A stretch of DNA of 64,000 bases, from contig JAFSSQ010000010.1 of assembly GCA_017450965.1 (NCBI GenBank), positions 6,424 through 70,423 of the forward strand, in the 5' to 3' direction. Position 1 is the first letter of the stretch, and each line of letters starts with the position of its first letter. The position numbers and the translations under genes were made by a program. Positions 18,985 through 50,205 of the stretch are shown here, piece by piece. Source of the DNA: Clostridia bacterium. Its GTDB lineage: Bacteria > Bacillota > Clostridia > Oscillospirales > CAG-272. The notes below the pieces were generated by a model. That model was given only the letters and a program-made list of their open reading frames with translations. It ran no database searches and was not told where the DNA came from.

Positions 18985-20493
18985 TCAGGGCAGGGTGATC
19001 TCGGCGCTGACCGTGCCGCTCACAGCGTCCCAGGAGTCGACCGCTTTGACAAGGACGCGGTAGGACCCGGCTTTGTCCATCGTGATCGAATAGGTAAAGG
19101 TCTTCTGCATCTCCGCCGCGGTCGCGCGGGCGTAGAAATCGCTGACGGCGAGGACGGTCTTTTCCGTTTTGCCCGTGGCGGTATCCACGACCTGCATTTC
19201 GTAGTGGTGGACGAAGTCGTCGTCCGTGCCCGCCGGGAGGGAGAGAGTCAGGGTGTGCCCGTCGCCGGCCGTCAGCGTGAGCGGGCCGGAGAGGGAGGGC
19301 GCGGCGTTCGCCGCTTCCCGTTCGGCTCTGCGGTAGAGGGTGAGGTGCGAGCCGTCCGCCTGCGGAGCGGGGAGCTCCCACGCCGTTTTGATCTCCTTCT
19401 TTTCGGAGAAGAGCAGGCGGGTGATCCGGACGTTGCCGCCTTCGTCGATCTGGACGAGCAGCCCGGTCGAAACGTCTCCGTTGGGGACGGCGAGCTGCGT
19501 CTTGTCGTTTTCCATGTTGTCGTACTTTTCGAGCTCAAAGGCGGTGTTCGAGGTGGAGCCGCAGTTGACCGCGGTAAAGGCGGTCTGCATGATGGAGCGC
19601 TCGTCGAAGACCGGCGTGTGGGTGTGTCCGGTGAAGACGATGACCTGCGGATATTTTTCCAGGACCGCCCCGAGGTTTTCGGTGCGCCAGCGGCTGTGCC
19701 CCGGCTCGTGATCCGCCTCGCTGCCGTAGGTCGTGTCCGCGATCGTCGGATGCGTTACCACAAAGACGTAAGAGGAGGGATCCTTTGCCGTGAGATCGGC
19801 AAGCGTATGGTCGATCCAGGTCAAAACCTCCGCGGCAAAGGGCGTGCCGTAGCCGTAGCTCGCCGGCTCCACGATGAGGAAATGATACCCGAAGAGGACG
19901 CTGTGCCGGTATCCTTTTTCCAGATCGGAGTCAACGTCCATCGCGTAGTAGTCCGCGCCGAGGTACGTTTCCTTCAGCGAGGGCTGGAAGGTCAGGGTAG
20001 AGCGGGTGTCGTGATTGCCGACGGCGACCAGCACGTTCGTTCCGAGCGATTTTGCTTTGTAATCGGAGAGGATCGTCGCAAAGCGCGAGATCTCCAGGTT
20101 GGCCGACTTGTCGCCTTTCGAGGTGTTGGAGACCATATCGCCCGCGACCACGAGCCCGCGCAGACCGTTCGGGTCGGACTTGGCGGCCTCGGCCAGCAGC
20201 TGGTTCAGCGCGTTGGTGAACATCCCCTTGTTTTTGGTCGCGCTGACGCTGATATGCACGTCGGAGATCGCGCCGAAGGAGAAGACGATCTTCGTTTCGT
20301 CAAACGACGGCAGGGGCTCTTTTTCCGCGGGAGCGGTCTCCTCCGGCGCCGTCTCGGCGGGGGCGGTCGAGGGCGTTTCCGTCAGCGCGCCGGTCTCTTC
20401 CGGCGGGAGGGCCGGATCGGCGGCGCAGCCGCAGCAGCCGATCATAGCGGCAAAGGACAGCAGGATAAAGAAAAGCGGGTGTTTGTGTTTCAT
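18985..20493 (-). CDS. Lipoprotein, calcineurin-like metallophosphoesterase with C-terminal beta domain
   Basis: Signal peptide ending MIGCCGC, PETA-rich linker, then ISDVH, AGDM, GNHD, THP, GHTH motifs. Confidence 0.85.
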   Translation of the reverse strand: MKHKHPLFFILLSFAAMIGCCGCAADPALPPEETGALTETPSTAPAETAPEETAPAEKEPLPSFDETKIVFSFGAISDVHISVSATKNKGMFTNALNQLLAEAAKSDPNGLRGLVVAGDMVSNTSKGDKSANLEISRFATILSDYKAKSLGTNVLVAVGNHDTRSTLTFQPSLKETYLGADYYAMDVDSDLEKGYRHSVLFGYHFLIVEPASYGYGTPFAAEVLTWIDHTLADLTAKDPSSYVFVVTHPTIADTTYGSEADHEPGHSRWRTENLGAVLEKYPQVIVFTGHTHTPVFDERSIMQTAFTAVNCGSTSNTAFELEKYDNMENDKTQLAVPNGDVSTGLLVQIDEGGNVRITRLLFSEKKEIKTAWELPAPQADGSHLTLYRRAEREAANAAPSLSGPLTLTAGDGHTLTLSLPAGTDDDFVHHYEMQVVDTATGKTEKTVLAVSDFYARATAAEMQKTFTYSITMDKAGSYRVLVKAVDSWDAVSGTVSAEITLP

Positions 20494-20560
20494 CGTTTTT
20501 TCCTCTGTTCTACCTTCCGGGCGGTTTCGCCCGGCGGATCGTTTCAATTGATTTCAGTTT

Positions 20561-20589
20561 ATCATATCACAAACCGGCGGGAAAAGCAA
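20561..20589 (-). promoter_or_regulatory. SigA-type promoter for the phosphoesterase
   Basis: TTGCTT-N17-TATGAT with a TG extension, on the minus strand. Confidence 0.6.
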
Positions 20590-20698
20590 TTTTTTTCTTC
20601 CCGCCCGGGCAACAAGCGGTAAAAAGACGCCAAGAATAGGCAAAAAAGCCGCCGCCGCTTTCCGCTTTGGCATATCTTGCAAAACTGCGGGAAGGCCC

Positions 20699-20727
20699 TT
20701 GCGTTTTCCGCCCGGCGGTGGTATACT
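20699..20727 (+). promoter_or_regulatory. SigA-type promoter for rbsK-SIS
   Basis: TTGCGT-N17-TATACT with extended -10 (TGn). Confidence 0.65.
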
Positions 20728-20766: not shown

Positions 20767-21741
20767 ATGACAAAACGGAAACCTCGGATCCTCGTGGCGG
20801 GGAGTTTGGTGATGGACCTGATCTGCTCCGCGCCGCGCTTTCCGCAGAGCGGGGAGACGGTGATCGGCACGGATTTTTCCACCGCGCCGGGCGGAAAAGG
20901 CGCCAACCAGGCGGTCCAGGCCGCCCGCCTCGGCGCCGAGGTCGCGATGGTCGGCAAGATTGGGCGCGACGACTTCGGCCGGCAGATCCTTTCGTCGCTC
21001 CGGGAGTCCGGCGTCGATACGTCGGGAGTGCGCCTCTCGGAGAGCCGCCCCACCGCGATCGGCAATATCCAGCTTGAGGTGACGGAGGCGGGGACCGCCA
21101 ACCGGATCCTCGTCATTCCCGGCGCCAATATGGACTGGGAGGAGCGCGATCTCGCCCTGCTCGAGGAAAAGATCCCCGGCTGCGGGATGCTGATTTTGCA
21201 GCTGGAGATCCCGACGGAGGTCGACCTTGCCGCGGCGCGGATCGCCCGCCGCTACGGCGTTCCCGTGATGCTCAATTCCGCGCCCTCCGCGCCGATCCCG
21301 GAGGAGCTGCTTTCCGGACTTGACTATATCTCGCCGAACGAGCACGAGGCGTACGACCTCACCGGCGTGCGCGTGAGCGACCTTTCCTCCGCCCGCGAGG
21401 CGGCGGATATTCTGCTCCGGCGCGGAGTGAAAAACGTGATCATCACCCTCGGCAGCCGCGGCGCCGTCTTCTCGGACGGGACGCGCTTTCTGCACGGGCC
21501 GTGCGTGGACTTTGCGCCGACCCTCGACCCCACCGCCGCGGGAGACAGCTTCGTCGGCGCGTTCTCCGTCGCCGTCTGCCTCGGCGCGGAGCCGGAGGAG
21601 GCGCTCACCTTCGCCAACCACACCGCGGCGATCACCGTCTCCCGGATGGGCGCGCAGCCCAGTCTCCCCGCGCTGCCGGAGGTAACGGACTTTCTGAAAC
21701 GAAACGGACACGACGTGTCCCGCTATACGGAGGATCTTTGA
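20767..21741 (+). CDS. rbsK: Ribokinase-like PfkB kinase
   Basis: GSLVMD, PGGKGANQAVQAARLG, QLEIP, PNEHE, DPTAAGDSFVGA, AAITVSRMGAQPS. Substrate may not be ribose. Confidence 0.85.
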   Translation: MTKRKPRILVAGSLVMDLICSAPRFPQSGETVIGTDFSTAPGGKGANQAVQAARLGAEVAMVGKIGRDDFGRQILSSLRESGVDTSGVRLSESRPTAIGNIQLEVTEAGTANRILVIPGANMDWEERDLALLEEKIPGCGMLILQLEIPTEVDLAAARIARRYGVPVMLNSAPSAPIPEELLSGLDYISPNEHEAYDLTGVRVSDLSSAREAADILLRRGVKNVIITLGSRGAVFSDGTRFLHGPCVDFAPTLDPTAAGDSFVGAFSVAVCLGAEPEEALTFANHTAAITVSRMGAQPSLPALPEVTDFLKRNGHDVSRYTEDL

Positions 21742-21742
21742 G

Positions 21743-22339
21743 ATGGACGCTGTCGCCAGATTTACCGAAACCGTCCGCAGGGAGCTGGACGCTTTCCTCG
21801 CGGACATGAAAACGGAGGACTTTCTCCCCGCCGCCCGACTGATCCGGGAGGCGGAGGAAGCGGGCGGCCGCCTGCACGTTACGGGGATCGGCAAGCCGGC
21901 GCATATCGCCGCCTACGCCGCCTCCCTCTTTTCCTCCACCGGAACGCCCGCCTACTTCCTGCACGGCACGGAGGCGGTCCACGGCTCCTGCGGGCAGCTC
22001 GCGCCCGGGGACGCGGTGATCTGCATCTCCAACAGCGGGGAGACGGCGGAGCTGAAGGCGACCGCCGCGGCGATCCGCCGCAACGGCTGCAAGGTGATCG
22101 CCGTAACGGGCAACCCGGACTCCTGGCTCGGCCGCTTTGCGGACGTAACGCTCGCCGCGCCCGTCCGGGAGGAGGGCGGACCGCTCAACCGCGCGCCGCG
22201 CGCCTCCTTCCTCGTGGAAACGATCGTTTTGCAGGGGCTCTCGATCGTATTGCAGGAAAAGCGAGGGCTCACCCCGCAGGAGTACGTCCTGCGCCACCCC
22301 GGCGGCTCGCTCGGGCAGCTGCGGGAAAACGAAAAATAA
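21743..22339 (+). CDS. Single-domain SIS sugar-phosphate isomerase, KpsF/GutQ (arabinose-5-phosphate isomerase)-like, no CBS domains
   Basis: TGIGKPAHIA, STGTPAYFLHGTEAVHG, ISNSGET, HPGGSLG. Confidence 0.82.
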   Translation: MDAVARFTETVRRELDAFLADMKTEDFLPAARLIREAEEAGGRLHVTGIGKPAHIAAYAASLFSSTGTPAYFLHGTEAVHGSCGQLAPGDAVICISNSGETAELKATAAAIRRNGCKVIAVTGNPDSWLGRFADVTLAAPVREEGGPLNRAPRASFLVETIVLQGLSIVLQEKRGLTPQEYVLRHPGGSLGQLRENEK

Positions 22340-22402: not shown

Positions 22403-24046
22403 TCATTTGTTTAAGGTGATCTCAAGCAAAAAGGTATTGTAGCAAGGATCCCAGGTCGACATCACAAAGGCGATCTTCCGGCCGCCGTCCCGCGAGAGGG
22501 CGGGGCAGCTGAAGCCGCCGTACACGCCCGCCCCGACCGAGGGGAAGGTGATGTCGGCCGAGAGGGCGTAGGGCCCTTCCGGCTTTTTGGCGGTGTAGAG
22601 GTGGAAGACGTTGTCCTTTTTGAAGGAGACGATCCACTCGCCGAGGTACTCGTTATAGAAGATCGTGTTCTCCGATACGCGCGCGTCGATCAGCGGGAAC
22701 TCGCTCCGGATCCCCGCCTCGCCCGCCGTCCAGACGGCGCTGCCGTCCGCGTCGTAGCCGGTGAGGTACTCGTAGGCGGAGAGCGTTTCGATCTTGTCCG
22801 CGTCCACCCGCATCATCCGGGCAAAGCCGAGCCGCCCGCCGGTGATCCCGGTCAGGTAGACCTTGCCGTCCGCGGGGTTGTAGGCGGGCGAGATCTGGCA
22901 GAACTTCGTGTCTCCTTCCCAGCGGATCCCGTCGACGATCTGCCACGTCTTGCCGTCGTCAGCGGATTTGGCGAGCCCGCCGTAGTTGCAGTCCCAGCCG
23001 TTGTCGGTGCTCCACTCGCGCACCGACATAAAGTAGAAGTAGAGGTTATCGCCGAGGGAGATCGCGCCCGTCGGGATCTTCGAATACTCGGTTTTCGGCT
23101 TTTTCATCCCGGGGATCAGCTCGGTCGCAAAGTCGCCGGAGGAGGCGTACATCCCGTCGAAGACGATGCCGTTGGTGTAATCGAGGTCGGTCGTGTAGGC
23201 GGCGGTGTTGGTGCGCCAGCCGTCCTTGCGCTCCCCGCCGGAGAAGGTATCGCCGAAGAAGAACCAGAGCGTGTCCTTGTGCAGAACGGGGAAGCCGAGG
23301 TCAAGCCCGCACACGTTGTAGAGAGAATGGGTGCGGTTGACCGAATACTCGCCCGTCAGCATGGCGATCGTCCTCACGCCCGTCACGGCGCGGAGGGGGG
23401 AGGAGGCGTTCCCGGTCACGGCGGTCGAGATCACGGCGGTATGCAGCTTTTCCACGACCGCGGTCCCCTGCTTTTCGTAGTCGTTGTAGGAGGAGAAACG
23501 GCTGACCGAGAGGGTGCGGCTGAGGGAGAGCCCGTCCCCGTCCCGCTCGAGGCACCGGCCGACCAGCCAGTCGACCGCGTTCAGTACCTCCGCGTCGCTG
23601 CCGCCGAGCAGGTAGATCGCCGTGCGGCCGTCCGTTTCCTCGACGAAAACGGAAAACTCCGTTTCCCGCAGGCGGGTCTCGTTTTTCTCCTTGCGGGAGG
23701 AAAACCCGACGACGATCTCCGCCTCGCCCGGCTCCGGCGTTTCGCGGTCGGTCGAGGCGGCCAGCCGCACCCCGGTCGCGTCCCGGACGTACTCCCGCAG
23801 AGAGGAGACGGCCGCTTTGACGGAGGCGGAGGCGTTATCCGCCCGGATCAGGGTAAAGGCGGAGGCGCCGCCCGAAACGAGCCGGATCCGCCCGTCGGCG
23901 GGCGCGGCGGGAGCCGCCGTTTCGCTTTCCGCCGGAGCGGAGGTCTCACCGGTCGCCGCGGGGGCCTTGTCACAGGCAAGGAGAAAAAGAAAAGGGAAGA
24001 GGGAGATCAGAAAGAGGGAAAACAGTTTCACAGAAAAACGGTTCAT
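22403..24046 (-). CDS. Lipoprotein with N-terminal alpha/beta accessory domain and DUF4185 (GH183-like endo-D-arabinofuranase) domain
   Basis: Lipobox LLAC; GLDLG, FFGDTF, WRTN, IPTGAI, YFYFMSV, S-x-D-x-G-x-T-W box, VSE. Confidence 0.75.
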   Translation of the reverse strand: MNRFSVKLFSLFLISLFPFLFLLACDKAPAATGETSAPAESETAAPAAPADGRIRLVSGGASAFTLIRADNASASVKAAVSSLREYVRDATGVRLAASTDRETPEPGEAEIVVGFSSRKEKNETRLRETEFSVFVEETDGRTAIYLLGGSDAEVLNAVDWLVGRCLERDGDGLSLSRTLSVSRFSSYNDYEKQGTAVVEKLHTAVISTAVTGNASSPLRAVTGVRTIAMLTGEYSVNRTHSLYNVCGLDLGFPVLHKDTLWFFFGDTFSGGERKDGWRTNTAAYTTDLDYTNGIVFDGMYASSGDFATELIPGMKKPKTEYSKIPTGAISLGDNLYFYFMSVREWSTDNGWDCNYGGLAKSADDGKTWQIVDGIRWEGDTKFCQISPAYNPADGKVYLTGITGGRLGFARMMRVDADKIETLSAYEYLTGYDADGSAVWTAGEAGIRSEFPLIDARVSENTIFYNEYLGEWIVSFKKDNVFHLYTAKKPEGPYALSADITFPSVGAGVYGGFSCPALSRDGGRKIAFVMSTWDPCYNTFLLEITLNK

Positions 24047-29203: not shown

Positions 29204-29498
29204 AACGTTATCCTTTGATCCTTCTTTAAGATATGGTACGCTGAGTCTATTGTAGCATCGGCGAAAAAAGAGGGGAATATCATTTATTGGGCGATCGCTT
29301 GTCATTTCTTGCCGTCGGACGGGGGGAAGGGCCGCGCCCGGCTCCGGGAGCGGGGAGATCGGCCGAAAAAAGACAAAGCGATATATAAAATATAGAAATA
29401 ATAGGAAAAACCGGATTAAAGAAGATAAAAAGGGAGAGATAGAGAAAAAGGTTTTTTGTCTTTTTCTTTACAAAAATTGGCATATCAAGGAGAAAGTC

Positions 29499-29527
29499 TT
29501 GCGTTTACGCGCGAGCGGTGCTATTCT
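29499..29527 (+). promoter_or_regulatory. SigA-type promoter for the PfkB-ADH-FSA operon
   Basis: TTGCGT-N17-TATTCT with extended -10; closely resembles the promoter at 20699. Confidence 0.6.
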
Positions 29528-33620: not shown

Positions 33621-33638
33621 TTTTATACGTTATAATTA

Positions 33639-38795: not shown

Positions 38796-38841
38796 GCGTG
38801 ACCTTCCGCATAGGCGCGGCGCGGGACGGCTTTGCCGGCCG

Positions 38842-38877
38842 AAAAAATCTCCCTCCCGCCGGATCGGCGGGAGGGAG
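38842..38877 (-). terminator. Intrinsic terminator after the GRE activase
   Basis: 12-bp stem ctccctcccgcc/ggcgggagggag followed by atttttt on the minus strand. Confidence 0.8.
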
Positions 38878-38885: not shown

Positions 38886-39794
38886 TTACCGGAACCGTAC
38901 CGGTTTGTCGGTTTGCTTTTTGAGCGCCTCGAGGAAGGCGAGGTTTTCCTCGCGGGAGGCGAGGGGGGTATCGGCGAGGGCGTAGGGCCTGCCGAGCTCG
39001 CGGTATTTGCCGACGCCGAGCCGGTGATAGGGGAGCAGCTCCACGGCGGCGACGGGGAGGGGGGCGAGGAGGGCCGCCAGGTCCGCTGCAAACGCCCCGG
39101 TCATATTGACGCCGGGGATGAGGGGGACGCGGACGACCGTCTCGGTGAGCTTTGCCGCCGTCCGGAGATTTTCGAGGATCGGCTTGTTGCTTTGTCCGGT
39201 ATAACGGATATGTTCGGCCTCGTCGAGAAGCTTCACGTCAAAGTAGACGCGGTCGACCATGCCGGCGATCCGGGCAAAAACGGCGGGATCCGCGAAGCCG
39301 CAGGTTTCGATCATCACGTTGATCTTTTCCCGTTTGAGGCGTTCGATCAGCGCGAGAACGAAGTCCGCCTGGGCGGTTACCTCGCCGCCGGAGAGGGTGA
39401 CCCCGCCGCGAGAGTCCTCGTAGTAGTCCCGGTCCTTCAGTATGAGCTCGGTCAGCTCGTCGACGGTGTAGGGCTTGCCCGCCTCCCGGATCCGGTCAAA
39501 CGGGCATAGCGTTTCGCACCTTCCGCAAAAAACGCACTTGTCCGGGTCGGCCGACACGCCCTGTTCCGAAAGGGAGAGCGCGCCCTGCGGGCAGGCGGAA
39601 AGGCATTTTCGGCAGTCGGCGCACGCGCCGGCGGGCTTGATCATCAGCTCGGAGGAAAAACTCTGCGACTCGGGGTTGCAGCACCACGCGCAACGCATCG
39701 GACAACCCTTGAAAAAGACGGTCGTCCGGATGCCGTCCCCGTCGAACAGGCAGAAACGCTGAACGTCGAAGATCAGAGCAGTCGTTTTCACCAT
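38886..39794 (-). CDS. Glycyl-radical enzyme activating enzyme (radical SAM, with 2x[4Fe-4S] insert)
   Basis: DGDGIRTTVFFKGCPMRCAWCCNPES, CxxCxxCxxxCP twice, GVTLSGGE, LLPYH. Confidence 0.95.
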   Translation of the reverse strand: MVKTTALIFDVQRFCLFDGDGIRTTVFFKGCPMRCAWCCNPESQSFSSELMIKPAGACADCRKCLSACPQGALSLSEQGVSADPDKCVFCGRCETLCPFDRIREAGKPYTVDELTELILKDRDYYEDSRGGVTLSGGEVTAQADFVLALIERLKREKINVMIETCGFADPAVFARIAGMVDRVYFDVKLLDEAEHIRYTGQSNKPILENLRTAAKLTETVVRVPLIPGVNMTGAFAADLAALLAPLPVAAVELLPYHRLGVGKYRELGRPYALADTPLASREENLAFLEALKKQTDKPVRFR

Positions 39795-42160: not shown

Positions 42161-43177
42161 TCAGGGGTTCTGCGCGGCTTTTTTCTTCTGCGCGAGCTCG
42201 TAGGCGACCTGGATGCAGATCTGCTCCTGCCCCTCGGTGCAGCCGCGGAGGCCGATCTCCTTGATGATGTCGCGGGTGTCGACGCCGAACTTCGCCGCCG
42301 CGCGCCGCGCAAAGAGGATAAAGCTGGAGTAGACGCCGTAGCCGAGCATGATCTGGTCGCTCGTCAGCTCCATCGGGCGCGGCATCAGCGGTTTGAGGTA
42401 CTCGTCGCCCACGTCCATCGCCTTGTACATATCCACATTGGTGCGGTAGCCCTTGCGGTCCAGCGCGAGCAGCAGCGGCTCGACGGGGCAGTTGCCCGCG
42501 CCGGCGCCGAAGCCCTTGATGCAGGTGTCCACGTAGGTCGCGCCCGCGTCGATCGCCGCGAGGGTGTTGGCGACGGCAAGCTGCATATTGTTGTGCGCGT
42601 GGAAGCCGAGCGGAACGTCGATGTGCTTCTGGAGGGTGAAGATGCGCTCGTAGACTTCCTCCGGCAGGGCGGATCCGCCGCCGTCGAGGAGGTAGATCAC
42701 CTCGGCGCCGAATTTCTCGGAGATCTGGGCGTAGCGGAGCGTCTCCTCCACCGAGAGGAACTTGGCGAGCGGGAGGACCGCCCACGGGATCAGGCCCATC
42801 TCTTTCGCCATGCCGATATGCTGACGCGCGATGTCGCACTCGGACATCTGGGTGGCGAACCGGGCGACGGTGATGCCGTTTTCCTTCGCCATCTTCAGAT
42901 CGTACCGCGTCCCGATACCGGGGAGGGTGATGATCGCGAGCTTCGCGTTTTTCACCTTCGGGCGGACGGCTTTCATATACTCCTCGTCCGTCGCGGCGCC
43001 GAATCCGTACTGGATGGAGGAACCGCCGACGCCGTTTCCGTGGCCGAATTCGATGAAGTCGACGCCGGTGCTGTCGATCTGTTCCGCGAGCATCGCCATC
43101 TGCTCCGTCGTGTACTTGTGGCTCATCGCGTGCGAGCCGTCGCGGAGCGTGGAATCGAGAATGTTGATCCGTTTCAT
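42161..43177 (-). CDS. mhpE: 4-hydroxy-2-oxovalerate aldolase-like (DmpG/MhpE, DRE-TIM)
   Basis: LRDGSH, HGNGVGGSS, GFHAHNN, GFGAGAGN, GVYSSF. ATG 43177 with GGAGG RBS. Confidence 0.9.
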   Translation of the reverse strand: MKRINILDSTLRDGSHAMSHKYTTEQMAMLAEQIDSTGVDFIEFGHGNGVGGSSIQYGFGAATDEEYMKAVRPKVKNAKLAIITLPGIGTRYDLKMAKENGITVARFATQMSECDIARQHIGMAKEMGLIPWAVLPLAKFLSVEETLRYAQISEKFGAEVIYLLDGGGSALPEEVYERIFTLQKHIDVPLGFHAHNNMQLAVANTLAAIDAGATYVDTCIKGFGAGAGNCPVEPLLLALDRKGYRTNVDMYKAMDVGDEYLKPLMPRPMELTSDQIMLGYGVYSSFILFARRAAAKFGVDTRDIIKEIGLRGCTEGQEQICIQVAYELAQKKKAAQNP

Positions 43178-43179
43178 AA

Positions 43180-44061
43180 TCAGTGATTGCCTCCTTGTTT
43201 CAAGAGATGTTCGGCGATCCCTTCGCCGACCGCCAGCGCAGCGCTCGTCTCGATATCGAGATTGCCGCTGTATTTGGGGAGATAGTCGCCCGCGCCCTCG
43301 ATCTCGACCATGGTCGTGACCTGGTTGCCGTCGATCGTCGGCGGGAGCTTGAGGGAGTAACCGGGAACGTACTGCCGGACCCGTTCCACCATCCGGTTGA
43401 CCGCGTCGTTGATCTTCACCGGGTCGGGATCTTCCACGAGGCAGTAGATGGTGTTGCTCATCATGATGGGGGGCTTGGAGGGGTTGAGGAGAATGATCGC
43501 CTTGGATTTTTCCGCGCGGCCGACCACCCTCAGCGCCCGCGCCGTCGTGATGGTGAACTCGTCGATGCTGTCGCGGGTGCCGGGGCCGGCGCTGTCGCGC
43601 GCGATGCACGCCACGATCTCCGCGTAGTTGACCTTCGTCACCTCGCTGAGGGCGTACACGATCGGGATCGTCGCCTGTCCGCCGCAGGTGATCAGGTTGA
43701 GGTTCGGCTCGTTCTTGTACCCTTCCAGGTTGACGGGAGGGCAAACGTAGGGACCGATCGCGGCGGGGGTGAGGTCGACCGCGATCTTGCCGGCCGCCTT
43801 CAGGAGCGGCGCGTGCACCATGTGCGCGCTGGCGAGGGTGGCGTCGAAGACGATCTTGATGTCGTCATGCTCGAGGAGCCCTTCGATCCCGCGGTCGGTG
43901 GTCGGCACGCCGGCCGCCGCGGCGACGGGAAGGTGTTTCGAGGTGTCGTTGCCCACCATCAGCTTGAGCTCCATATACTTCGAGCGCTTGAGGATCTTGT
44001 ACATCAGGTCAAGCCCGATGTTGCCGGGACCGATGATTGCGACGGGGATTTTCTTTTCCAT
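43180..44061 (-). CDS. mhpF: Acylating acetaldehyde dehydrogenase (DmpF/MhpF)
   Basis: [44 protein letters not shown]. Confidence 0.93.
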
Positions 44062-44124: not shown

Positions 44125-45009
44125 TCAGGGGGTCTGTTTGCCGCGCAGCTCCCGGAGGTAAGCGGAGGGACTCTGCCCGCACTGCATCTTGAAGAAACGG
44201 CTGAAGGAATAGATATCGGGGAACCCGAGCAGATCTCCCACCCGGGAGGGGGAAAGTCCCTCCTCCAGCTTCTTTTTGGCGTATTCGGAGCGCAGGGAAT
44301 TGCAGTATTTGATCAGCGAAACGCCGTAGGTGGAGCGGAACTTTTTGACCAGATAGAACTTGTTGTAGTGGAACTGCTCCGAGAGGTCGTCCAGATTGAA
44401 GCGGGAGTTGAGGAAGTTTGCGTCGATAAAACTCTTGACGCTGCTGATGAAGTCCGGCTCCTCGTGCGCGAAGCTGCGCAGCTCGGAGATGTTGTCGCGG
44501 ATGATCATGCGCAGAAGCGCCGTCATCTGCTCCTTGCAGATCAGCTGATAGAGGACCGGCTTGTTGTGATAGGTGCGGATCACGTCCTCCACCAGAGAGA
44601 GGAAGACCTTGCGGTTGCTGACGTTGAGGAAGGGGTATTCCAGCTCCCCGCCGAAAAAGTCCGGCTGGACGCAGCGCCGCTCCTCCTCGGTGAAATCGGC
44701 GAGGTTTTTGTAAGAGACGTAGGAAAGCTCGCTGGAGGGCGTGTAGGTCACGTCGAAATGGATATGCGCGTGGAGCGGAGAGGAGTCCGGCGGAACGACG
44801 ATCGTGTGGTTGACGCCGGGCGGGATCAGGATGATATCGCCCTGCTTCGTTTCGTAGGTCTTTTCGTTCATCAAAAGAGTAAAGCCGCTGGAGATGAACC
44901 AGATCAGCTCGTAGTCAAAGAGCGCCCGCTCCTTGAAGACAAGTCCGGGACGGAGGGTCGAGGTGAGCGCGGCCCGGACGTAAGGGGAAACGGCGTTGAC
45001 GTTCAGCAT
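44125..45009 (-). CDS. AraC/XylS family transcriptional regulator
   Basis: N-terminal cupin (YELIW, GDIILIPPG); C-terminal double HTH ending GFPDIYSFSRFFKMQCGQSPSAY. Confidence 0.93.
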   Translation of the reverse strand: MLNVNAVSPYVRAALTSTLRPGLVFKERALFDYELIWFISSGFTLLMNEKTYETKQGDIILIPPGVNHTIVVPPDSSPLHAHIHFDVTYTPSSELSYVSYKNLADFTEEERRCVQPDFFGGELEYPFLNVSNRKVFLSLVEDVIRTYHNKPVLYQLICKEQMTALLRMIIRDNISELRSFAHEEPDFISSVKSFIDANFLNSRFNLDDLSEQFHYNKFYLVKKFRSTYGVSLIKYCNSLRSEYAKKKLEEGLSPSRVGDLLGFPDIYSFSRFFKMQCGQSPSAYLRELRGKQTP

Positions 45010-45036: not shown

Positions 45037-47718
45037 TCATTTTTTTGAAACTTCGATCTCCCACACAAACGACTGATAGAGGGTCGCCCGGGAGGTGATG
45101 ACCATCATGTAGCGGCCGCCCTCCCGCGTGTAAACGGAGGAGACGCGCGGCTCGTAGACCGCGCCCATCACGCCGCCCTGCTTGATGATCAGGACCGGAT
45201 CCGACCAGACGCCGTCCAGGGTCTTGGCCGTCCGCATCACGATACTGTTTTTCAGGTCGCCCGCGTAGGCGGTGCAGTAGAGGATGACCCACTCGCCGAG
45301 GTATTCGTTATACATCACGCCGACGCCGCCGACCGCGGCTTCGACCGCCGCGTAGTTGCTCATCATCGCGTCGTACCCGCGCTCGAAGATCCCGTTGCCG
45401 TTTTCGTCCCGCCCGGTCATGTACTCGTAGGCGGAGAAATCCTCGATCTGAGACGCCTTTACGCGCATGATGCGGCAGGCGCCCTTGCGCCCGCCGGGAA
45501 CGCCGAAGACGTAGACCCACTCCCCGTCAAGGACGGGATAGAGCTGGGCAAGCCCGTAGAGGGGGACCTGCGCCACGGGATCGGAAACGTCCGTTCCCGC
45601 CGGCCAGCGCAGATCGGAGGAGATCTCCCAGCTGCGGCCCATATCGGTCGACTTGGCGAGCGCGCCGTAGTTGCAGGGCCAGCAGCCGTTGCGGCCCGTG
45701 GTGCCCCACGCGTTGACCGACATATAGTAGAAATAGAGGGTATCGCCGATCTTCAGCCCGCCCGTCGGGATCTTCGACTCCTCCGTTCCCTTTTTGTGCA
45801 GGGAGGGGAGGAACTCTCCGGCAAAGGGCTTGCTCTGGTAGCTGTCGCCCATGTAAAAGCCGTCGATCCGGATCCCGTCGGTGTAGTCAAAGTCGCTGGT
45901 AAAGGCAAGACTGTTCGCGCGCCAGGTCTTGCCGAGGCCGTCTTCGGAGTTGCTGTCCCCGAACGCCAGCAAAACCGAGTCGCCGCAGTCGATCATATAG
46001 CCGCCGCCCACGCGCGCGATATCGTAGTTCGAGAGGGTGCGGTTGTCTGAGTATTCCCCGGTAAGGAGGGAAACGAAGCGCAGACTTTCGACCCGGTAGA
46101 GGGAATAGGCGGGGTCGTCCAGGGTGCGCGATTTTTCGCTGTAAAGACCGGCGAGCTGCGCCGGGCTGTTTTCCCGCTTTTTCTGCTCGGCGATCAGGGC
46201 GTCGACGTCCGCGATGCGGGTCTTCGCGTCGGGGCCGAGCGCGTCTTTCTCCGCGTCGGTCAGCGGCGTCGTCGCGGAAAGCGTAACGGAGGGCGGATCG
46301 GTATAGCGGATCCCGTTTGCGGTGAGGGCGGGCGCCCGTACGGCAAGGCAGGAGGCGTCGTTTTTCTCGGTGACGGTAAAGGCGCTGCCCGTGAGGGATA
46401 CGGCGCTTCCGAGGAGGAGACGGGCGCCGGGGTTGCCCTTGGCGACGGTCCCGGCGGGGAAGCTCCCGCCCGTGACGCAGAGGACCGTCTTCGCGTAGGT
46501 GGAAACGGTGATCGCGTCGGAGGTTACCTGGCGGACGGCCAGATCCTTTGAGAGGAAGGTGCCGCCGGTGATCTTGAGCGTGACGCTGCCGGTGACCGCG
46601 ACGGGATTGCGGTTCGGGTTGCTCTCGGTGCGGGAGAGGAGGTAGACCGGACCATCAAAGGTCCCGCCGCTGATCTCCATATAGACCGTGCCGGCGACGC
46701 TGTTCATCCCGGAGGCGGAGTTGAAATCCTGTCCCGAGGAGGCAATAAAACGTCCGCCCTTGACATAAACGCAGAAGGAGACGCCCTCGTCGACCGTGCC
46801 GAACGCGGACTTCGCGTCCATCCGGCTGTTGCCGCCGCGCAGATACTGCCAGGTCCCGGATTTCACCGTAACGGCGGCGTCCTTGTGGCAGCCGATCTGG
46901 TAGGCGTTCATATGGAGCGAGGAGGGGGCGTTGTAGCCGCCGAGCAGCGCGATATAAGTCGAAACGCCGCTCGCCCGGGAACACTCAACGTCCGCGCCGA
47001 CCGTAACGTTGTTGTACTGGAAACAGAAGAAGAGGTTGTTCTTTTCGGCGGAGACGGCCAGTCCCTCGAGAAGATAGTCGCCGTAGAAGTTCGCGTCGGC
47101 GGAGAAGGAGAGCTTCGCGCCGCTTGTCTTCCGGTAGTCGATCCCGTCCCGGACCGAGGTCAGGGTAACGGTCGCTTCGTTGGAGGGAAAGTAGTAGGTC
47201 TCGGGGAAGGTAAGCGGGCCGCAGACGACGACCGTGCCGCCCGTTTTTTTGGTTTTGCCGAGGCCGTCGGCAAGGGCGGCGGCGTTCTCGGGCGAGGAGC
47301 CGTCCTTTTTCCCGGCGCCTTTCTCTGTGACGAAGACGACCGGCGCGGCGGGATCCCCGCCCTGCAGCCCTTCGGGCGCTTCGGTCTCCGGCGCCGCCGT
47401 TTCGGGCGCCGCGGTCTCCGCCGATCCGCCCTGAGGGGGGGCGGTCTCCGGCGTTTCGGTCTCTGCGGGCTCCGTTTCCCGGCCGGCCGTCTCCGGCGCG
47501 GCGGTTTCCGTCTCACCGGTCTTTTTCGTTTCCGGCGCGGCGGTCTGCGGGACCTCCGTTTGTTCGGCGGTCCCGGCGGGCAGAGGCGCTTTTCCCGTTT
47601 CCGCCGTTTCTGACGAGACGGGGGAGGACGGCGCGGCGGGCGCGCAGCCGATCGGCAGAAGGGAGCAGAGCAGGACCAAAGCAAGCAAAGAGTGTCCGGT
47701 GCGACTCGTTCGTTTCAC
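45037..47718 (-). CDS. Lipoprotein: beta-solenoid-like domain + DUF4185/GH183-like domain lacking predicted catalytic residues
   Basis: Lipobox PIGC, ETAAP linker, DGSSPENA domain; FGD, WRAN, IPTGG, YYMSV, STDMGRSW. GxDLG replaced by RVGGG and VSE by VGG. Confidence 0.72.
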   Translation of the reverse strand: MKRTSRTGHSLLALVLLCSLLPIGCAPAAPSSPVSSETAETGKAPLPAGTAEQTEVPQTAAPETKKTGETETAAPETAGRETEPAETETPETAPPQGGSAETAAPETAAPETEAPEGLQGGDPAAPVVFVTEKGAGKKDGSSPENAAALADGLGKTKKTGGTVVVCGPLTFPETYYFPSNEATVTLTSVRDGIDYRKTSGAKLSFSADANFYGDYLLEGLAVSAEKNNLFFCFQYNNVTVGADVECSRASGVSTYIALLGGYNAPSSLHMNAYQIGCHKDAAVTVKSGTWQYLRGGNSRMDAKSAFGTVDEGVSFCVYVKGGRFIASSGQDFNSASGMNSVAGTVYMEISGGTFDGPVYLLSRTESNPNRNPVAVTGSVTLKITGGTFLSKDLAVRQVTSDAITVSTYAKTVLCVTGGSFPAGTVAKGNPGARLLLGSAVSLTGSAFTVTEKNDASCLAVRAPALTANGIRYTDPPSVTLSATTPLTDAEKDALGPDAKTRIADVDALIAEQKKRENSPAQLAGLYSEKSRTLDDPAYSLYRVESLRFVSLLTGEYSDNRTLSNYDIARVGGGYMIDCGDSVLLAFGDSNSEDGLGKTWRANSLAFTSDFDYTDGIRIDGFYMGDSYQSKPFAGEFLPSLHKKGTEESKIPTGGLKIGDTLYFYYMSVNAWGTTGRNGCWPCNYGALAKSTDMGRSWEISSDLRWPAGTDVSDPVAQVPLYGLAQLYPVLDGEWVYVFGVPGGRKGACRIMRVKASQIEDFSAYEYMTGRDENGNGIFERGYDAMMSNYAAVEAAVGGVGVMYNEYLGEWVILYCTAYAGDLKNSIVMRTAKTLDGVWSDPVLIIKQGGVMGAVYEPRVSSVYTREGGRYMMVITSRATLYQSFVWEIEVSKK

Positions 47719-47763
47719 GGCGTTCTCCTTTTCAATCCGGATCGGGAAATGCGTTATCCGTTT

Positions 47764-50205
47764 TCAGCCTTTTTTGGAGAGTTCGATTTCCCAGATGATG
47801 GAATTGTAGATATCCCAGCGCGAGGTGATGAGCATCATATAGCGCCCGCCCTCCCGCGTGTAAGCGGAACAGACGCGCGGCTCGTAGACGGCGCCGAAGG
47901 TCGCCTGCGACATAACGAGGACCGCCTCGGACCACTTGCCGTCAAGGGTCTTCGCGGCGCGCATCACGATGCTGTTTTTCAGGCTGCCCGTCTCCGGCGT
48001 GCAGTAGAACATCAGCCATTCGCCGAGGTATTCGTTGTACATCACGCCGACGCCGCCGACGCACTTGTCCACCGCGGCGCAGTTGGTCATCATCGCCTTC
48101 TCGCCGCGCTCGAAGATCGCGTTGCCGTTTTCGTCCCGCCCGGTCATATACTCGTAGGCGGTGAAGTTTTCGATCTGGGACTGTTTCACGCGCATCAGAC
48201 GGCAGTAGCCCCTGCGTCCGCCCGGTACGCCGAAGAAGTAGACGAAATCTCCGCTGAGGACGGGATAGAGCTGCGCAAAGCCCCATTCCGGGATCTCCTC
48301 GACGGGGTCGTCGACGTCGGTCCCCGCCGGCCAGCGCAGGTCGGAGGGCGTTTCCCAGCTGCGGCCGAAGTCGGTCGACTTGGCGATCCCGCCGTAGTTG
48401 CAGGGCCAGCAGCCGTTCCGGTCGGTCTCCCGCCAGCTCGCGACGGACATATAGCAGAAGTAGAGGGTATCGCCGATCTTTATCCCGCCCGTCGGGATCT
48501 TCGACTCTTCGGTCTTGTTCTTCGTGTCGTGCCCCGAAAGGAGGAACTCGCCGGAGAACGGCGCGCTCTGATAGGTATCGCCCATATAGAAGCCGTCCAG
48601 CGTGATCCCGTCGGTGTAGTCCCGATCGGTCGTGAAGGCGAGGGCGTTCGCGCGCCACGGTTTGCCGAGCTCGCCCTCGGGGTTGCAGTCGCCGAACGCG
48701 AGGAGGGTCGTATCGCCGCAATCGATCATATAGCCGCCGCCCGCGCCCGCGATATCGTAGTTGGTGATCGTTTTATTGATCGAATACTCGCCCGTCAGCA
48801 TCGAAACGAACTTCACGCTGCGCAGCGCGTCGAGGGAGTAGAGTTTATCGGGGTCGCGCAGACGCATCGAGGACGCCGGCGTGTTCTGTTCCAGCTTCCG
48901 GACCTTCGCCAGCGCGGCGGCGGTCTCGGAGATCAGGCTCTTTTCCTCTTCCGCGGTGAGGGGGCCGGTTTTCGGCTTCGTCTCGGGGAAGGGAGGCTCG
49001 GTGTAGGAAGGGGCGTTCGCCTTCAGGGTCGGCGCGGCGATCTGATCGGCGCTGCCGGAGAGGGTCTTTGTAAAGGACTTCGCGGTCACGCCCACGCCGT
49101 CGCTGAGGAGGACGCTGCTGCCCGATTCGCCCGTGGCGACCGTTCCCGCCGGGAAGGCGCCGCCGGAGACGCAGAGAACCGTTTCCGCGTGAGAGGAGAG
49201 GGCGGTCTTGTCGGAGGTGGTCTGGCGGACGGCCAGCTCCTTCGAGCGGAAGGTGCCGCCGGTGATCTTCAGCGTGACGCTGCCGGTAACGGACACGGGA
49301 TAGAGCTCCGTGTTGCTCCCGGTGCGGGAGAGGAGATAGACCGGGCCCTCAAAGGTCCCGCCGCTGATCTCCATATAGACCGTACCGGCGACGCTGTTCA
49401 TGCCGGAGGCGGAGTTGAGATCCCGTCCCGAGGCGGCGGAAAAGCTCCCGCCCTGCACGAAGATCGCAAAGGTGACGCCCTCGTCCACGGTGCCGAAGGT
49501 GGACTTCGCCTGGGTGCGGCGGTTGCCGCCGCGCAGGTACTGCCAGGAGCCGCCCTTCACCGTGACGGCGGCGTCCGCATGGCAGCTGACCTGTTCGACG
49601 TTGCGGTAGGCGCTGGAGGGGACGTTGTAGCCGCAGATCAGCGCGATGTCGGTCGAAACGCCGGACGCGCGGGTGCACTCTACGTCCGCGCCGAAGGTCA
49701 CGTTGTTGTACTGGAGGCAGAAGAGCAGGTCGGCTTTCTCGGCGGAGATCGTCAGGCCGTCAAAGAGATAGTCGCCGTAAAAGAAGGCGTTCGAGGAGAA
49801 GGCGAGCTTCGCGCCCGCCGCCGTCCGGTAGTCGACGCCCTCCCAGACGGAGGTCAGGGTAACGGAGGCGCCGTTGGAGGGGAAGAAATAATCTTCGTCA
49901 AAGGAAAGCGGCCCGCAGACGACGACGGTGCCGCCCGCTTTTTTGGTTTTGCCGAGGCCGTCGGCGAGGGTGGCGGCGTTCTCGGGCGAGGTGCCGTCCT
50001 TTTCGCCGGCGCCGTCCTGCGTCACGAAGACGGTCGCCGCTTCCGCGGCAAAATCGTCCTCGGGAAGGGCGGTGGTGCTGTCCTCCGGCGGGACGGACGG
50101 CTTATCGCAGGAGCCGAGCGCCGCGGCGCAGAAAAGGAGCGAAAGGATCATCGAAAGGATCCGGAAAAGCGGAGACGTGCGGGAGGCGTTTTTTGGTTGC
50201 TTCAT
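47764..50205 (-). CDS. Tandem paralog: lipoprotein with beta-solenoid-like + DUF4185/GH183-like domains lacking predicted catalytic residues
   Basis: Lipobox LGSC; colinear with 45037-47718; GAGGG and VGG at the catalytic positions. ATG 50205 with GGAG RBS. Confidence 0.72.
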   Translation of the reverse strand: MKQPKNASRTSPLFRILSMILSLLFCAAALGSCDKPSVPPEDSTTALPEDDFAAEAATVFVTQDGAGEKDGTSPENAATLADGLGKTKKAGGTVVVCGPLSFDEDYFFPSNGASVTLTSVWEGVDYRTAAGAKLAFSSNAFFYGDYLFDGLTISAEKADLLFCLQYNNVTFGADVECTRASGVSTDIALICGYNVPSSAYRNVEQVSCHADAAVTVKGGSWQYLRGGNRRTQAKSTFGTVDEGVTFAIFVQGGSFSAASGRDLNSASGMNSVAGTVYMEISGGTFEGPVYLLSRTGSNTELYPVSVTGSVTLKITGGTFRSKELAVRQTTSDKTALSSHAETVLCVSGGAFPAGTVATGESGSSVLLSDGVGVTAKSFTKTLSGSADQIAAPTLKANAPSYTEPPFPETKPKTGPLTAEEEKSLISETAAALAKVRKLEQNTPASSMRLRDPDKLYSLDALRSVKFVSMLTGEYSINKTITNYDIAGAGGGYMIDCGDTTLLAFGDCNPEGELGKPWRANALAFTTDRDYTDGITLDGFYMGDTYQSAPFSGEFLLSGHDTKNKTEESKIPTGGIKIGDTLYFCYMSVASWRETDRNGCWPCNYGGIAKSTDFGRSWETPSDLRWPAGTDVDDPVEEIPEWGFAQLYPVLSGDFVYFFGVPGGRRGYCRLMRVKQSQIENFTAYEYMTGRDENGNAIFERGEKAMMTNCAAVDKCVGGVGVMYNEYLGEWLMFYCTPETGSLKNSIVMRAAKTLDGKWSEAVLVMSQATFGAVYEPRVCSAYTREGGRYMMLITSRWDIYNSIIWEIELSKKG

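Follow-up and report, generated by a model that had tools for sequence, protein, structure and literature searches.

Introduction

Mycobacterial and corynebacterial walls have D-arabinan as their hallmark polymer, and it was not until 2023 that enzymes cleaving it were identified, in Bacteroidota and Actinomycetota. D-arabinan enzymes of families GH183 and GH172 are described from Actinomycetota, Bacteroidota, Myxococcus and phages (PMC10115798; PMC10509167), and the residue roles of GH183 were assigned as nucleophile Asp33, acid/base Asp51 and essential Glu243 (EndoMA1 numbering; PMC10509167). The E. coli glycyl radical enzymes (GREs) YbiW and PflD work with FSA aldolases and a dehydrogenase on anhydro-sugar phosphates, as an earlier annotation of the DNA studied here (the initial annotation) had correctly stated (PMC13450708). 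GRE diol dehydratases, the YbiW/PflD-FSA system and DmpFG-type complexes have each been described in detail (PMC13450708). In addition, E. coli FsaA acts as an arabinose-5-phosphate aldolase, FucO as a glycolaldehyde/ethylene glycol oxidoreductase and KdsD as an isomerase (PMC9947464).

Here we analyzed a stretch of 64,000 nucleotides (the window) in which GH183-like genes, a ribokinase-isomerase pair, an FSA-like aldolase gene and a GRE operon stand together at 18985-50205. It belongs to contig C72 of G000, an 89-contig metagenome-assembled genome (MAG) of 2,068,180 bp from an uncultured ruminant-gut Clostridia bacterium, and this genome is present in bovine and sheep gut metagenomes. We propose that the locus is one regulon with which the cell harvests a bacterial envelope glycan of the D-arabinofuranose type and ferments its sugar, a reading to which we give a probability of about one half. 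All genomes compared are MAGs, and contig breaks restrict claims of non-linkage.

Transcription units and a shared promoter motif

Hidden Markov model (HMM) scans of the window proteins against Pfam and NCBIfam found the families named in the initial annotation at their places (Table 1); the substrate-binding protein (SBP) gave no HMM match and was recognized by its fold only. Promoter and terminator scans backed five transcription units where four or five had been suggested on both sides of a restriction-modification (RM) island. A perfect sigma-70-type promoter (TTGACA-18-TATAAT) is located at 50308-50279 on the minus strand, upstream of the gene for DUF4185_C, and the only strong minus-strand terminator ahead of the RM island lies at 38877-38849. 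This promoter and this sole strong terminator therefore define DUF4185_C-DUF4185_B-AraC-mhpF-mhpE-GRE-activase as one predicted operon of 11.4 kb, in which genes overlap or are separated by gaps of 27-63 nt. The genes mhpE and mhpF share 4 nt, suggesting translational coupling. Terminators were also detected 3' of the FSA gene and of the genes for DUF4185_A and the phosphoesterase.

Three promoter regions had been said to share a 13-bp motif, and a search of both strands of the 2,068,180-bp genome located TTGGCATWTCWWG at 20667, 29477 and 50314, all in this locus, and nowhere else; by our estimate about 0.5 sites are expected by chance in the genome, for a pattern that was defined after the sites were seen. 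Three related genomes, G006, G002 and G003, retain the motif in their orthologous promoters. In the pfkB2 promoter (29456-29527, plus strand) the half-sites TTGTCTT (29456) and TTGGCAT (29477) form a direct repeat with a 21-bp period, directly followed by the promoter core (-35 TTGCGT at 29499, 17-nt spacer, -10 TATTCT at 29522). For six species with PfkB2 proteins of 64-98% identity, alignment of the regions upstream of pfkB2 gave TTGTCAT-N14-TTGTCAT, which reads TTGTCTT...TTGGCAT in the window; thus TTGKCWT-N14-TTGKCAT stands directly upstream of TTGCGT/TTGCAT-17-TATNCT in all six. The tandem half-sites are unique to the pfkB2 promoter within the genome and are found in every orthologous promoter.

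The rbsK promoter (20667-20727, plus strand) has the same -35/-10 design, with the motif TTGGCATATCTTG at 20667-20679, -35 TTGCGT at 20699, a 17-nt spacer and -10 TATACT at 20722, but its motif lies one helical turn further upstream; this design is conserved in G006. The third motif copy (50314-50326) is inverted relative to the DUF4185_C promoter and abuts the upstream side of its -35 box. Direct-repeat half-sites about 21 bp apart next to the -35 box are a layout familiar from araI, and this layout of AraC-type activator operators was found at the pfkB2 promoter. From the aligned promoters, the 13-bp motif is read as a single half-site of an operator of the AraC type that six species have in common. 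The AraC-family protein encoded within the 11.4-kb operon is the candidate binder of the TTGKCAT half-sites and the candidate co-regulator of the units; its orthologues are encoded inside the DUF4185 clusters of G003 and G007 (62% identity) and in the unrelated metagenomic contig L049 (40%). A sigma-54 promoter reading of TGGCATATCTTGC was dropped, because the GG-to-GC spacing is by our count 2 bases below the TGGCAC-N5-TTGC consensus and the motif lies upstream of ordinary -35/-10 boxes.

Conservation of the locus and of the GRE module

GRE orthologues with 79-95% identity were found in six other genomes of the genus, whose members are filed as Ruminococcus sp., Oscillospiraceae and Eubacteriales MAGs. 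The genes mhpF and mhpE adjoin GRE-activase in all seven genus genomes and in all nine places looked up outside these reference genomes of the genus (GRE identity 48-82%). In four more distant congeners with 49-50% GC (G003, G004, G007 and G008), pfkB2-FeADH-FSA (FeADH, iron alcohol dehydrogenase) lies inside a DUF4185 cluster: it is divergent from DUF4185_A, has more DUF4185 genes and the orthologue of AraC on its flanks and is accompanied by SBP-DUF6259; the same four genomes carry an operon mhpF-mhpE-GRE-activase-phosphoesterase with the phosphoesterase last. L049 (47% GC) encodes DUF4185-EamA-FeADH-DUF6259-FSA-like-PfkB-DUF4185-AraC on one strand, with proteins 37-61% identical to their window counterparts.

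Multiple DUF4185 copies (4-7) were found in exactly those seven genus genomes that have the orthologous GRE; they were not found in G005 (97% complete) or, with the exception of one weak match, in the other 32 genera searched. This co-occurrence lies within one genus and is not phylogenetically independent. In a class-wide sample of 399 scored Clostridia genomes, the other 398 gave no GRE orthologue at E <= 1e-200, showing that this GRE clade is rare in Clostridia. The initial annotation had named units unlinked in relatives as a refuting outcome; synteny within and outside the genus and the co-occurrence refute this, with exceptions (L030 and L052, see below), and chance juxtaposition was dropped on the strength of synteny and co-occurrence.

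Outside the genus the two halves of the metabolic gene set occur as a single operon. Three contigs (two are filed under Ca. Limiplasma and Feifaniaceae) share one arrangement, IclR | PfkB-FeADH-DctPQM-small protein-FSA-MhpF-MhpE-GRE-activase, in which identities to the window proteins are 55-68% for FSA, 59-72% for MhpE, 58-69% for MhpF, 45-47% for PfkB and 42-43% for FeADH. A Victivallales genome has GntR-FSA-PfkB-FeADH-...-MhpF-MhpE-GRE-activase without genes for a tripartite ATP-independent periplasmic (TRAP) transporter, and a Spirochaete contig has a similar, partial version. The recurrence of one operon in other taxa indicates that pfkB-FeADH-FSA and mhpF-mhpE-GRE-activase together are a conserved functional module. 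No DUF4185 gene was found in these other GRE-module loci. The TRAP binding protein of the related operons is matched about equally (~150 bits) by many sugar-acid and sialic-acid binders, and their IclR regulator is closest to KdgR/BhcR. The TRAP operons also encode a conserved protein of 122-130 aa between the TRAP genes and the FSA-like gene (L027:6999-7367, L028:6932-7309, L032:6894-7286), which has the motifs HWRV, PWESWY and EWTEERPDEVIG, no Pfam match and no homologue in G000.

These contexts bear on another explanation, in which the GRE-MhpFE-PfkB-FeADH-FSA proteins would form a self-contained route for an imported small sugar acid, e.g. the 3-deoxy-2-ulosonic acid KDO. MhpE or an aldolase of the dihydrodipicolinate synthase (DHDPS) type would cut KDO to pyruvate and an aldose, the glycan genes would merely be gathered niche genes, and arabinan would not feed the module. 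The TRAP genes with their sugar-acid/sialic-acid-type binder, the KdgR/BhcR-like IclR regulator, the DHDPS-type aldolases and the missing DUF4185 genes of the other lineages all speak for it, as do core-only versions (transporter, GRE, activase and MhpE/F) in Desulfovibrio sp. and one other genome and the separation of the GRE operon from the DUF4185 cluster in four congeners. However, PfkB-FeADH-FSA lies inside DUF4185 clusters in five lineages, L049 included; in the window one predicted operon contains the GRE genes, two DUF4185 genes and AraC; the operator motif common to the promoters suggests co-regulation; within the genus, every genome with the GRE has multi-copy DUF4185 and vice versa; and the window has no TRAP or other acid transporter. 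We regard a route for an imported sugar acid as unlikely.

Glycan-side proteins

The three DUF4185 family calls passed the HMM check, with scores of 210 (A), 173 (B) and 180 bits (C) against the Pfam gathering cut-off of 39.5. The initial annotation had spoken of GH183-like proteins, and for DUF4185_A this fits: the protein matches the solved endo-alpha-D-arabinanase EndoMA1 (PDB 8hhv) with E 1e-33 and 120 bits, and in the alignment it has the nucleophile Asp33, the acid/base Asp51 and Glu243, in GLDLG, FGDTF and VSEN. By sequence, DUF4185_A is a candidate GH183-type endo-D-arabinanase. DUF4185_B and DUF4185_C, like a 1601-aa paralogue encoded on contig C19, have Gly, Asp and Gly at the three positions, and the two Gly substitutions are kept in all their orthologues in three other species (G003:C33, G007:C25 and G008:C147). 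Since the nucleophile Asp and the essential Glu are lost, DUF4185_B and DUF4185_C are not ordinary GH183 hydrolases; together with the C19 paralogue they form a stable non-canonical subfamily and may be binding proteins or other catalysts. Contig C30 and L049 encode a third type, which has Asp, Asp and Asn and lacks a signal peptide.

The 447-aa surface protein has a predicted repetitive, beta-helix-like domain, a linker rich in Pro, Thr, Glu and Ala and a C-terminal membrane anchor. Its beta-helix-like domain also forms the N-terminal part of DUF4185_B and DUF4185_C, and the domain gave at least 40 tblastn matches in the 2.07-Mb genome. The "SBP" call of the initial annotation found its support in structure: the AlphaFold model of the 504-aa protein (pLDDT 89.8) matches the carbohydrate ABC (ATP-binding cassette) substrate-binding proteins Lmo0181, RafE, UgpB and AbnE with a Foldseek probability of 1.0, making the protein a probable oligosaccharide binder. 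Its family has 6394 representatives in a 50%-identity protein library and no Pfam model, and the genome encodes 11 paralogues, often side by side with a 447-type surface domain. The DUF6259 protein (PF19773, 104 bits) shows weak matches to DUF5696, GH66 and GHL6 and is a candidate cytoplasmic, glycoside-hydrolase-like TIM barrel; just four homologues were found, and its AlphaFold model has a pLDDT of 54. PDB sequence searches with the 504-aa and DUF6259 proteins gave no match. The one larger phosphoesterase homologue scanned, that of G003, is a 955-aa lipoprotein fused to CBM4_9 and a GDSL esterase domain, and its gene is followed by one for a GDSL/beta-helix lipoprotein.

Outside the window, the genus carries GH172 genes. 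The small GH172 protein of G007 matches the solved exo-alpha-D-arabinofuranosidase ExoMA1 (8ic8) with 413 bits (E 8e-123) and the fructofuranosidase alphaFFase1 with 114 bits, with PDB 7v1v among the matches. Contig C60 of G000 carries orthologues of both GH172 genes, the small one 62% identical to that of G007. D-arabinan as the putative target glycan rests on homology of this kind.

The polymer could also be another furanoside or ruminal polymer, such as alpha-D-fructofuranosides or a phosphorylated, acylated wall glycan, in which case the kinases and the isomerase would handle a different sugar. D-arabinan producers are minor rumen members. DUF4185_A is only a distant relative of EndoMA1 at 120 bits, of the five DUF4185 copies in the genome only one has the full catalytic triad, the fusion of phosphoesterase, CBM and GDSL domains suggests a decorated polymer, and GH172 includes difructose-dianhydride/alpha-D-fructofuranosidase enzymes, as the 7v1v match recalls. 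Against this stand the 413 bits of the small GH172 protein to ExoMA1 compared with 114 to the fructofuranosidase, the wide margin by which arabinose-5-phosphate isomerases are the best match of the SIS protein (see below) and the fact that the DUF4185 enzymes assayed so far are all endo-D-arabinanases (PMC10115798). We consider a glycan other than D-arabinan quite improbable.

The rbsK-SIS pair

The rbsK product scores 308.7 bits with the ribokinase model TIGR02152, above the cut-off of 299.65, and is a candidate D-arabinose (furanose) 5-kinase. The SIS protein, encoded by a single-copy gene, scores 129 bits with TIGR00393 (KpsF) and 127 bits with KdsD, the next best being HxlB with 45 bits. 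It aligns to positions 1-151 of the TIGR00393 model (E 2e-37) and stays below the cut-off of 204 bits because the CBS half is absent; CBS-less arabinose-5-phosphate isomerases are known. In G003, G007 and G008 the pair recurs in an operon GH172-SIS-GH172-rbsK divergent from AraC, with SIS 62-64% and rbsK 52-53% identical to the window proteins. Thus, rbsK-SIS accompanies GH172 or GH183 genes, which fits a conversion of D-arabinose to arabinose-5-phosphate and on to ribulose-5-phosphate.

The PfkB-FeADH-FSA trio

The FeADH scores best with the lactaldehyde reductase (FucO) type, all scores being below cut-off. The FSA-like protein matches PF00923 with 85 bits and reaches 94 bits with the TIGR00875 equivalog, compared with a cut-off of 246. 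Alignment with E. coli FsaA and FsaB showed that the Schiff-base Lys85, Asn28, Gln59, Thr109 and Arg134/Ser166/Lys168 are kept, the last three presumably being the FSA phosphate site. We take Asp6, Gln59, Lys85, Thr109 and Tyr131 to be the FSA active-site set, with Asp6 and Tyr131 catalytic; in all module members Asp6 is deleted and Tyr131 is replaced by Phe. This subfamily (~232-237 aa, 160 representatives; loci L027, L028, L032, L033, L047-L049 and L050-L081 besides the window) occurs in Clostridia, Spirochaetes, Verrucomicrobiota, Planctomycetota, Bacteroidota and Atribacteria, among anaerobic glycan degraders. A genome-wide scan of about 30 loci revealed FSA-like and PfkB as an invariant pair across phyla, which FeADH joins in about 18; a DHDPS-type pyruvate aldolase is present in nine and MhpFE-GRE in four lineages outside the genus. 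TRAP or SusCD genes often lie alongside.

The GRE module and its predicted pocket

The GRE shows the features of its family, namely the PFL-like (PF02901, 652 bits) and glycine-radical (PF01228, 96 bits) domains, the glycyl and Cys loops (RVAGFS and GCSE motifs) and an adjacent radical-SAM activase, and it passes TIGR01774 (721 bits, cut-off 678). MhpE (TIGR03217, 386 bits against 286; DmpG communication domain PF07836 present) and MhpF (TIGR03215, 409 against 282) are likewise above their cut-offs. Compared with solved structures, the GRE scores 612 bits with glycerol dehydratase, 582 with propanediol dehydratase, 565 with GRE 9rco, 500 with PflD and 471 with YbiW; the PflD model PRK09983 gave 593 bits, below the cut-off of 1109 and hence below the YbiW/PflD equivalog level.

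The clade, defined as 76 cluster representatives with at least 47% identity, was aligned in glycerol dehydratase numbering. Every member has His164, Ser282, Cys433-x-Glu435 and Tyr640; as in the propanediol enzyme, Phe occupies position 339 and a hydrophobic residue position 642; and the glycyl motif reads RVAGFSV. The set His164, Ser282, Cys433, Glu435 and Asp447, which we take to be the glycerol dehydratase active site, is incomplete: WHD(447) has become WLTGG, with His446 replaced by Leu and Asp447 by Thr in 75 of the 76 members. In addition, the loop before His164 is one residue shorter, and position 159 is Arg or Lys in 68 of the 76. YbiW, too, has Thr-Gly at the Asp447 position, and PflD has the loop deletion. 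The Leu-Thr-Gly-Gly sequence, the loop deletion and the basic residue 159 show that the GRE is neither a typical diol dehydratase nor a YbiW/PflD orthologue. Judged by these residues, its clade, a rare one, stands near the diol dehydratases and has a remodelled pocket. Our best guess for its substrate is a diol made from the cleavage product of D-arabinose-5-phosphate.

Alternatively, the GRE might be a YbiW/PflD-like C-O lyase (isomerase) that opens an anhydro-sugar phosphate, whose deoxy-keto sugar phosphate product the FSA-like protein would cleave; DUF4185_B and DUF4185_C would then be intramolecular transglycosylases that give the anhydro-sugar and PfkB2 would phosphorylate it. Asp6 of FSA presumably contacts the donor hydroxyl, and an FSA-like protein without Asp6 would fit a deoxy donor. 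The features shared with YbiW and PflD and the conservation of nucleophile-less DUF4185_B/C are consistent with such a reaction, as is the E. coli precedent of GRE, FSA and dehydrogenase acting on anhydro-alditol-6-phosphates (PMC13450708). However, the GRE scores higher with the glycerol and propanediol dehydratases (612/582 bits) than with PflD and YbiW (500/471), MhpE and MhpF are left without a role, and most lineages have the module without any DUF4185. We know of no DUF4185 protein that forms an anhydro-pentose, and we hold a C-O lyase to be very improbable.

Two further reactions were considered. As an aldonate 2,3-dehydratase feeding MhpE, the GRE would leave PfkB, FSA and FeADH unused, and such dehydrations need no radical chemistry; this reading was rejected for the locus and is possible for the core-only clusters. 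Conversion of a pentitol-5-phosphate to 2-deoxyribose-5-phosphate, followed by cleavage by the Asp6-less FSA in the manner of deoxyribose-phosphate aldolase (DERA), is chemically attractive, but the FeADH resembles small-aldehyde reductases; it was set aside and kept as a sub-variant.

Contigs from a bovine gut metatranscriptome are 96-98% identical to the GRE and DUF4185_B; these few matches of 200 nt suffice to say that genes of relatives are transcribed in cattle, and are weak evidence for the proposed regulon. Two more GREs, 27-30% identical to the window GRE, are encoded with an activase at C64:4900-24100, one with the glycyl motif RVCGWNE. They lie among genes for a 1827-aa beta-helix surface protein, a short-chain dehydrogenase/reductase, an SBP-fold paralogue, two 447-type proteins and an iron alcohol dehydrogenase, and the C64 locus looks like another glycan-capture set wired to radical enzymes.

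Proposed pathway

In the proposed regulon, DUF4185_A, the nucleophile-less DUF4185_B and DUF4185_C, the beta-helix protein and the phosphoesterase would attack and bind the polymer outside the cell, and the SBP-fold protein would capture oligosaccharides. Inside the cell, DUF6259 and the homologues of GH172 exo-alpha-D-arabinofuranosidases encoded elsewhere in the genome would free D-arabinose. As family membership and synteny suggest, a first route would lead via the rbsK kinase to D-arabinose-5-phosphate and via the CBS-less SIS isomerase to ribulose-5-phosphate. For a second route, whose chemistry is deduced from conserved gene linkage, PfkB2 would phosphorylate the sugar and the FSA-like aldolase would cut the sugar phosphate to a triose phosphate and a small hydroxy-aldehyde, which would be glycolaldehyde if the substrate is arabinose-5-phosphate. 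The FeADH would reduce the aldehyde to a 1,2-diol, the presumed end product where a GRE is absent; the GRE would dehydrate the diol to an aldehyde and MhpF would turn this into an acyl-CoA, a redox-neutral sequence that can yield ATP. MhpE, the partner of MhpF, would feed the same aldehyde pool from a 4-hydroxy-2-oxo acid. An AraC activator bound to TTGKCAT half-sites near the -35 boxes of the rbsK, pfkB2 and DUF4185_C promoters would turn the set on together.

The specific chemistry of the second route, from D-arabinose via glycolaldehyde to ethylene glycol or in a KDO variant, is tentative and on the doubtful side. It could amount to a natural, undescribed anaerobic D-arabinose pathway in which arabinose-5-phosphate gives glyceraldehyde-3-phosphate and glycolaldehyde, the latter being converted via ethylene glycol and acetaldehyde to acetyl-CoA; with MhpE or a DHDPS-type aldolase in front, it could also be a missing KDO route. 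A pyruvate aldolase in front would let the same module serve KDO, cleaved to pyruvate and D-arabinose. KDO use would explain the TRAP, DHDPS and SusCD contexts of the module, and D-arabinose use its GH183 and GH172 genes in the genus. We doubt that this pathway is correct in full.

Anaerobic scavenging of wall arabinan, as the initial annotation had proposed, gains from the DUF4185_A triad and from a GH172 protein that matches ExoMA1 with 413 bits and whose gene is co-operonic with rbsK-SIS orthologues in three species; the GRE module, by contrast, is not specific to arabinan. Several points weigh against the proposed regulon. The module occurs elsewhere with TRAP genes and without DUF4185, which makes it self-standing, and where it lies near TRAP, DHDPS-type aldolase, sulfatase or SusCD genes the sugar need not come from arabinan. 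L030 (82% identical GRE) and L052 (82% identical FSA) each have no DUF4185 gene within 10 kb, and four congeners have the GRE operon on one contig and the DUF4185 cluster on another. No ABC permease genes were found in the locus, two kinases for one sugar look redundant, and GH172 also includes alpha-D-fructofuranosidases. The loss of Asp6 and Tyr131 means that the FSA-like reaction may differ from that of FsaA; the loss of Asp447 and His446 together with basic residue 159 hints at an anionic substrate of the GRE, not a neutral diol; and the role assigned to MhpE is weak.

If the proposed reading is true, D-arabinan scavenging extends to strictly anaerobic gut Clostridia, with a suggested fermentation route. 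Three protein subfamilies are defined by conserved residues and neighbours: the MhpE/MhpF-paired GRE, the PfkB-paired FSA-like protein and the nucleophile-less DUF4185. Their neighbourhoods offer arabinose-5-phosphate, glycolaldehyde, ethylene glycol and KDO as candidate substrates. Confirmation would show how anaerobes handle glycolaldehyde-yielding sugars and would provide natural parts for engineered ethylene-glycol and glycolaldehyde pathways.

Gene inventory, RM island and neighbouring genes

Table 1. Features of the locus (positions in the window)
Feature	Position	Strand	Evidence or remark
Metallophos calcineurin-like phosphoesterase, secreted/lipoprotein	18985-20493	-	PF00149; signal sequence ending in Cys-rich lipobox-like stretch
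Ribokinase-type PfkB (rbsK)	20767-21741	+	TIGR02152
Single-domain SIS protein, 198 aa, KpsF/KdsD-like, CBS-less	21743-22339	+	TIGR00393
DUF4185_A, lipoprotein, GH183-like	22403-24046	-	PF13810
Surface protein, 447 aa	24147-25490	-	sequence; no Pfam match
Membrane-anchored SBP-fold protein, 504 aa	25523-27037	-	AlphaFold and Foldseek; no Pfam match
DUF6259 protein, predicted cytoplasmic	27062-29203	-	PF19773
PfkB-family sugar kinase (pfkB2)	29562-30509	+	PF00294
Group III iron alcohol dehydrogenase (FeADH)	30506-31717	+	HMM
Divergent TAL/FSA-family protein	31773-32486	+	PF00923
HTH-Fic gene	32543-33451		between FSA gene and RM island
RM island, type III-like	~33560-38800	-	GC 0.40; Pfam
Strong intrinsic terminator closing the 11.4-kb operon	38849-38877	-	
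GRE activase, radical SAM	38886-39794	-	TIGR02494, 297 bits, above cut-off
Glycyl radical enzyme (GRE)	39788-42130	-	PF02901, PF01228, TIGR01774
MhpE/DmpG-type 4-hydroxy-2-oxoacid (pyruvate) aldolase	42161-43183	-	TIGR03217
MhpF/DmpF-type acylating acetaldehyde dehydrogenase	43180-44061	-	TIGR03215
AraC-family regulator	44125-45009	-	Pfam
DUF4185_B, lipoprotein	45037-47718	-	Pfam
DUF4185_C, architecture as DUF4185_B	47764-50205	-	Pfam

The GC content is about 62% over 18.9-50.3 kb, except for 40% at ~33.6-38.8 kb. This low-GC part is the RM island, which sits between the Fic gene and the activase terminator and contains genes for a 254-aa hypothetical protein, a ResIII helicase, an N6/N4 methylase and a 129-aa hypothetical protein. 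In the sister genome G006 (~87% nucleotide identity) the locus is collinear without the island, and the Fic side and the activase side are 63 bp apart, showing that the island was inserted into a formerly continuous locus. The RM island, which the initial annotation had already placed between the catabolic units, is an insertion and not part of the system. G002 (~94% nucleotide identity) has the island, with a methylase 64% identical to that of G000, and lacks the Fic gene, which is present in G000 and G006. Extra segments of about 1.7 kb were observed between SIS and DUF4185_A in G006 (G006:C19:9504-11217) and between the phosphoesterase gene and rbsK in G002 (G002:C5:31570-33312).

Upstream of the locus (15598-18678) are genes for a CDP-glycerol glycerophosphotransferase of the teichoic-acid type, a VanZ-like protein and an acyltransferase-3 fragment, which appear to serve the cell's own envelope and are not kept beside the locus in the distant congeners. 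The region after the locus (50446-56544) begins with a second perfect sigma-70-type promoter (50446-50474, plus strand), followed by genes for a SpoIIE-phosphatase/HATPase fusion, a MatE-HATPase fusion, an HD protein and a STAS-APH kinase fusion; together they resemble an unusual signalling set of the partner-switching type.

Comparison with known systems

The initial annotation knew of no GH183-like genes organized with a GRE and an MhpFE pair, and we found none in the literature searched; nor did we find there a description of an MhpE/MhpF-coupled GRE clade, an FSA-like/PfkB module, nucleophile-less DUF4185 proteins or a GH183-GRE link. A 2026 review of GREs does not mention such a link (PMC13450708). 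The locus would combine known kinds of systems, a polysaccharide-utilization regulon and a GRE eliminase pathway, with three uncharacterized protein subfamilies.

On the glycan side, the locus resembles the D-arabinan clusters of Microbacterium arabinogalactanolyticum (EndoMA1/2 of GH183, ExoMA1 of GH172, ExoMA2 of GH116) and Dysgonomonas gadei (PUL42) in having a secreted GH183-type endo-enzyme with GH172 homologues (PMC10509167; PMC10115798). It differs from them in its strictly anaerobic Clostridia host and in that most DUF4185 copies are nucleophile-less and fused to beta-helix domains. Downstream, a kinase, SIS and GRE pathway would take the place of the fucose-isomerase-type route of D. 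gadei, in which that isomerase is the most abundant carbohydrate-active protein on D-arabinan.

The GRE shares the glycyl and Cys loops, His164, Ser282 and Glu435 with the glycerol dehydratase of C. butyricum (1r8w) and the propanediol dehydratase of R. inulinivorans (5i2a), and, as in diol-dehydratase systems, the locus also has genes for an acylating aldehyde dehydrogenase and an iron alcohol dehydrogenase. In contrast to those systems, the dehydrogenase is MhpF with MhpE and not of the PduP/EutE type, and no microcompartment genes were seen among the locus genes. With the E. coli YbiW/PflD-FsaA/FsaB-GldA route for 1,5-anhydroglucitol/mannitol-6-phosphate (PMC13450708) it has in common a GRE, an FSA-family aldolase, an alcohol dehydrogenase and phosphorylation. 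FSA and GRE-activase lie close together in the island-less G006, separated by just the Fic gene. Unlike the E. coli route, the locus uses a PfkB kinase and not a phosphotransferase system, its aldolase has neither Asp6 nor Tyr131, and MhpE and MhpF come in addition.

MhpE and MhpF resemble the DmpFG/MhpEF/BphIJ complexes, with both proteins above the NCBIfam equivalog cut-offs and overlapping genes, whereas the hydratase, dioxygenase and hydrolase genes of the aromatic meta-cleavage loci are absent, the host is anaerobic and the invariant partner is a GRE. Finally, the FeADH, the FSA-like protein and the SIS protein have possible counterparts in the SAGA pathway, which uses a FucO-type iron alcohol dehydrogenase, FSA as arabinose-5-phosphate aldolase and an arabinose-5-phosphate isomerase (PMC9947464). 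That pathway is engineered, runs in the synthetic direction and ends at phosphoketolase, whereas the set described here is natural, probably works in the cleaving direction and is joined to a GRE and MhpF.

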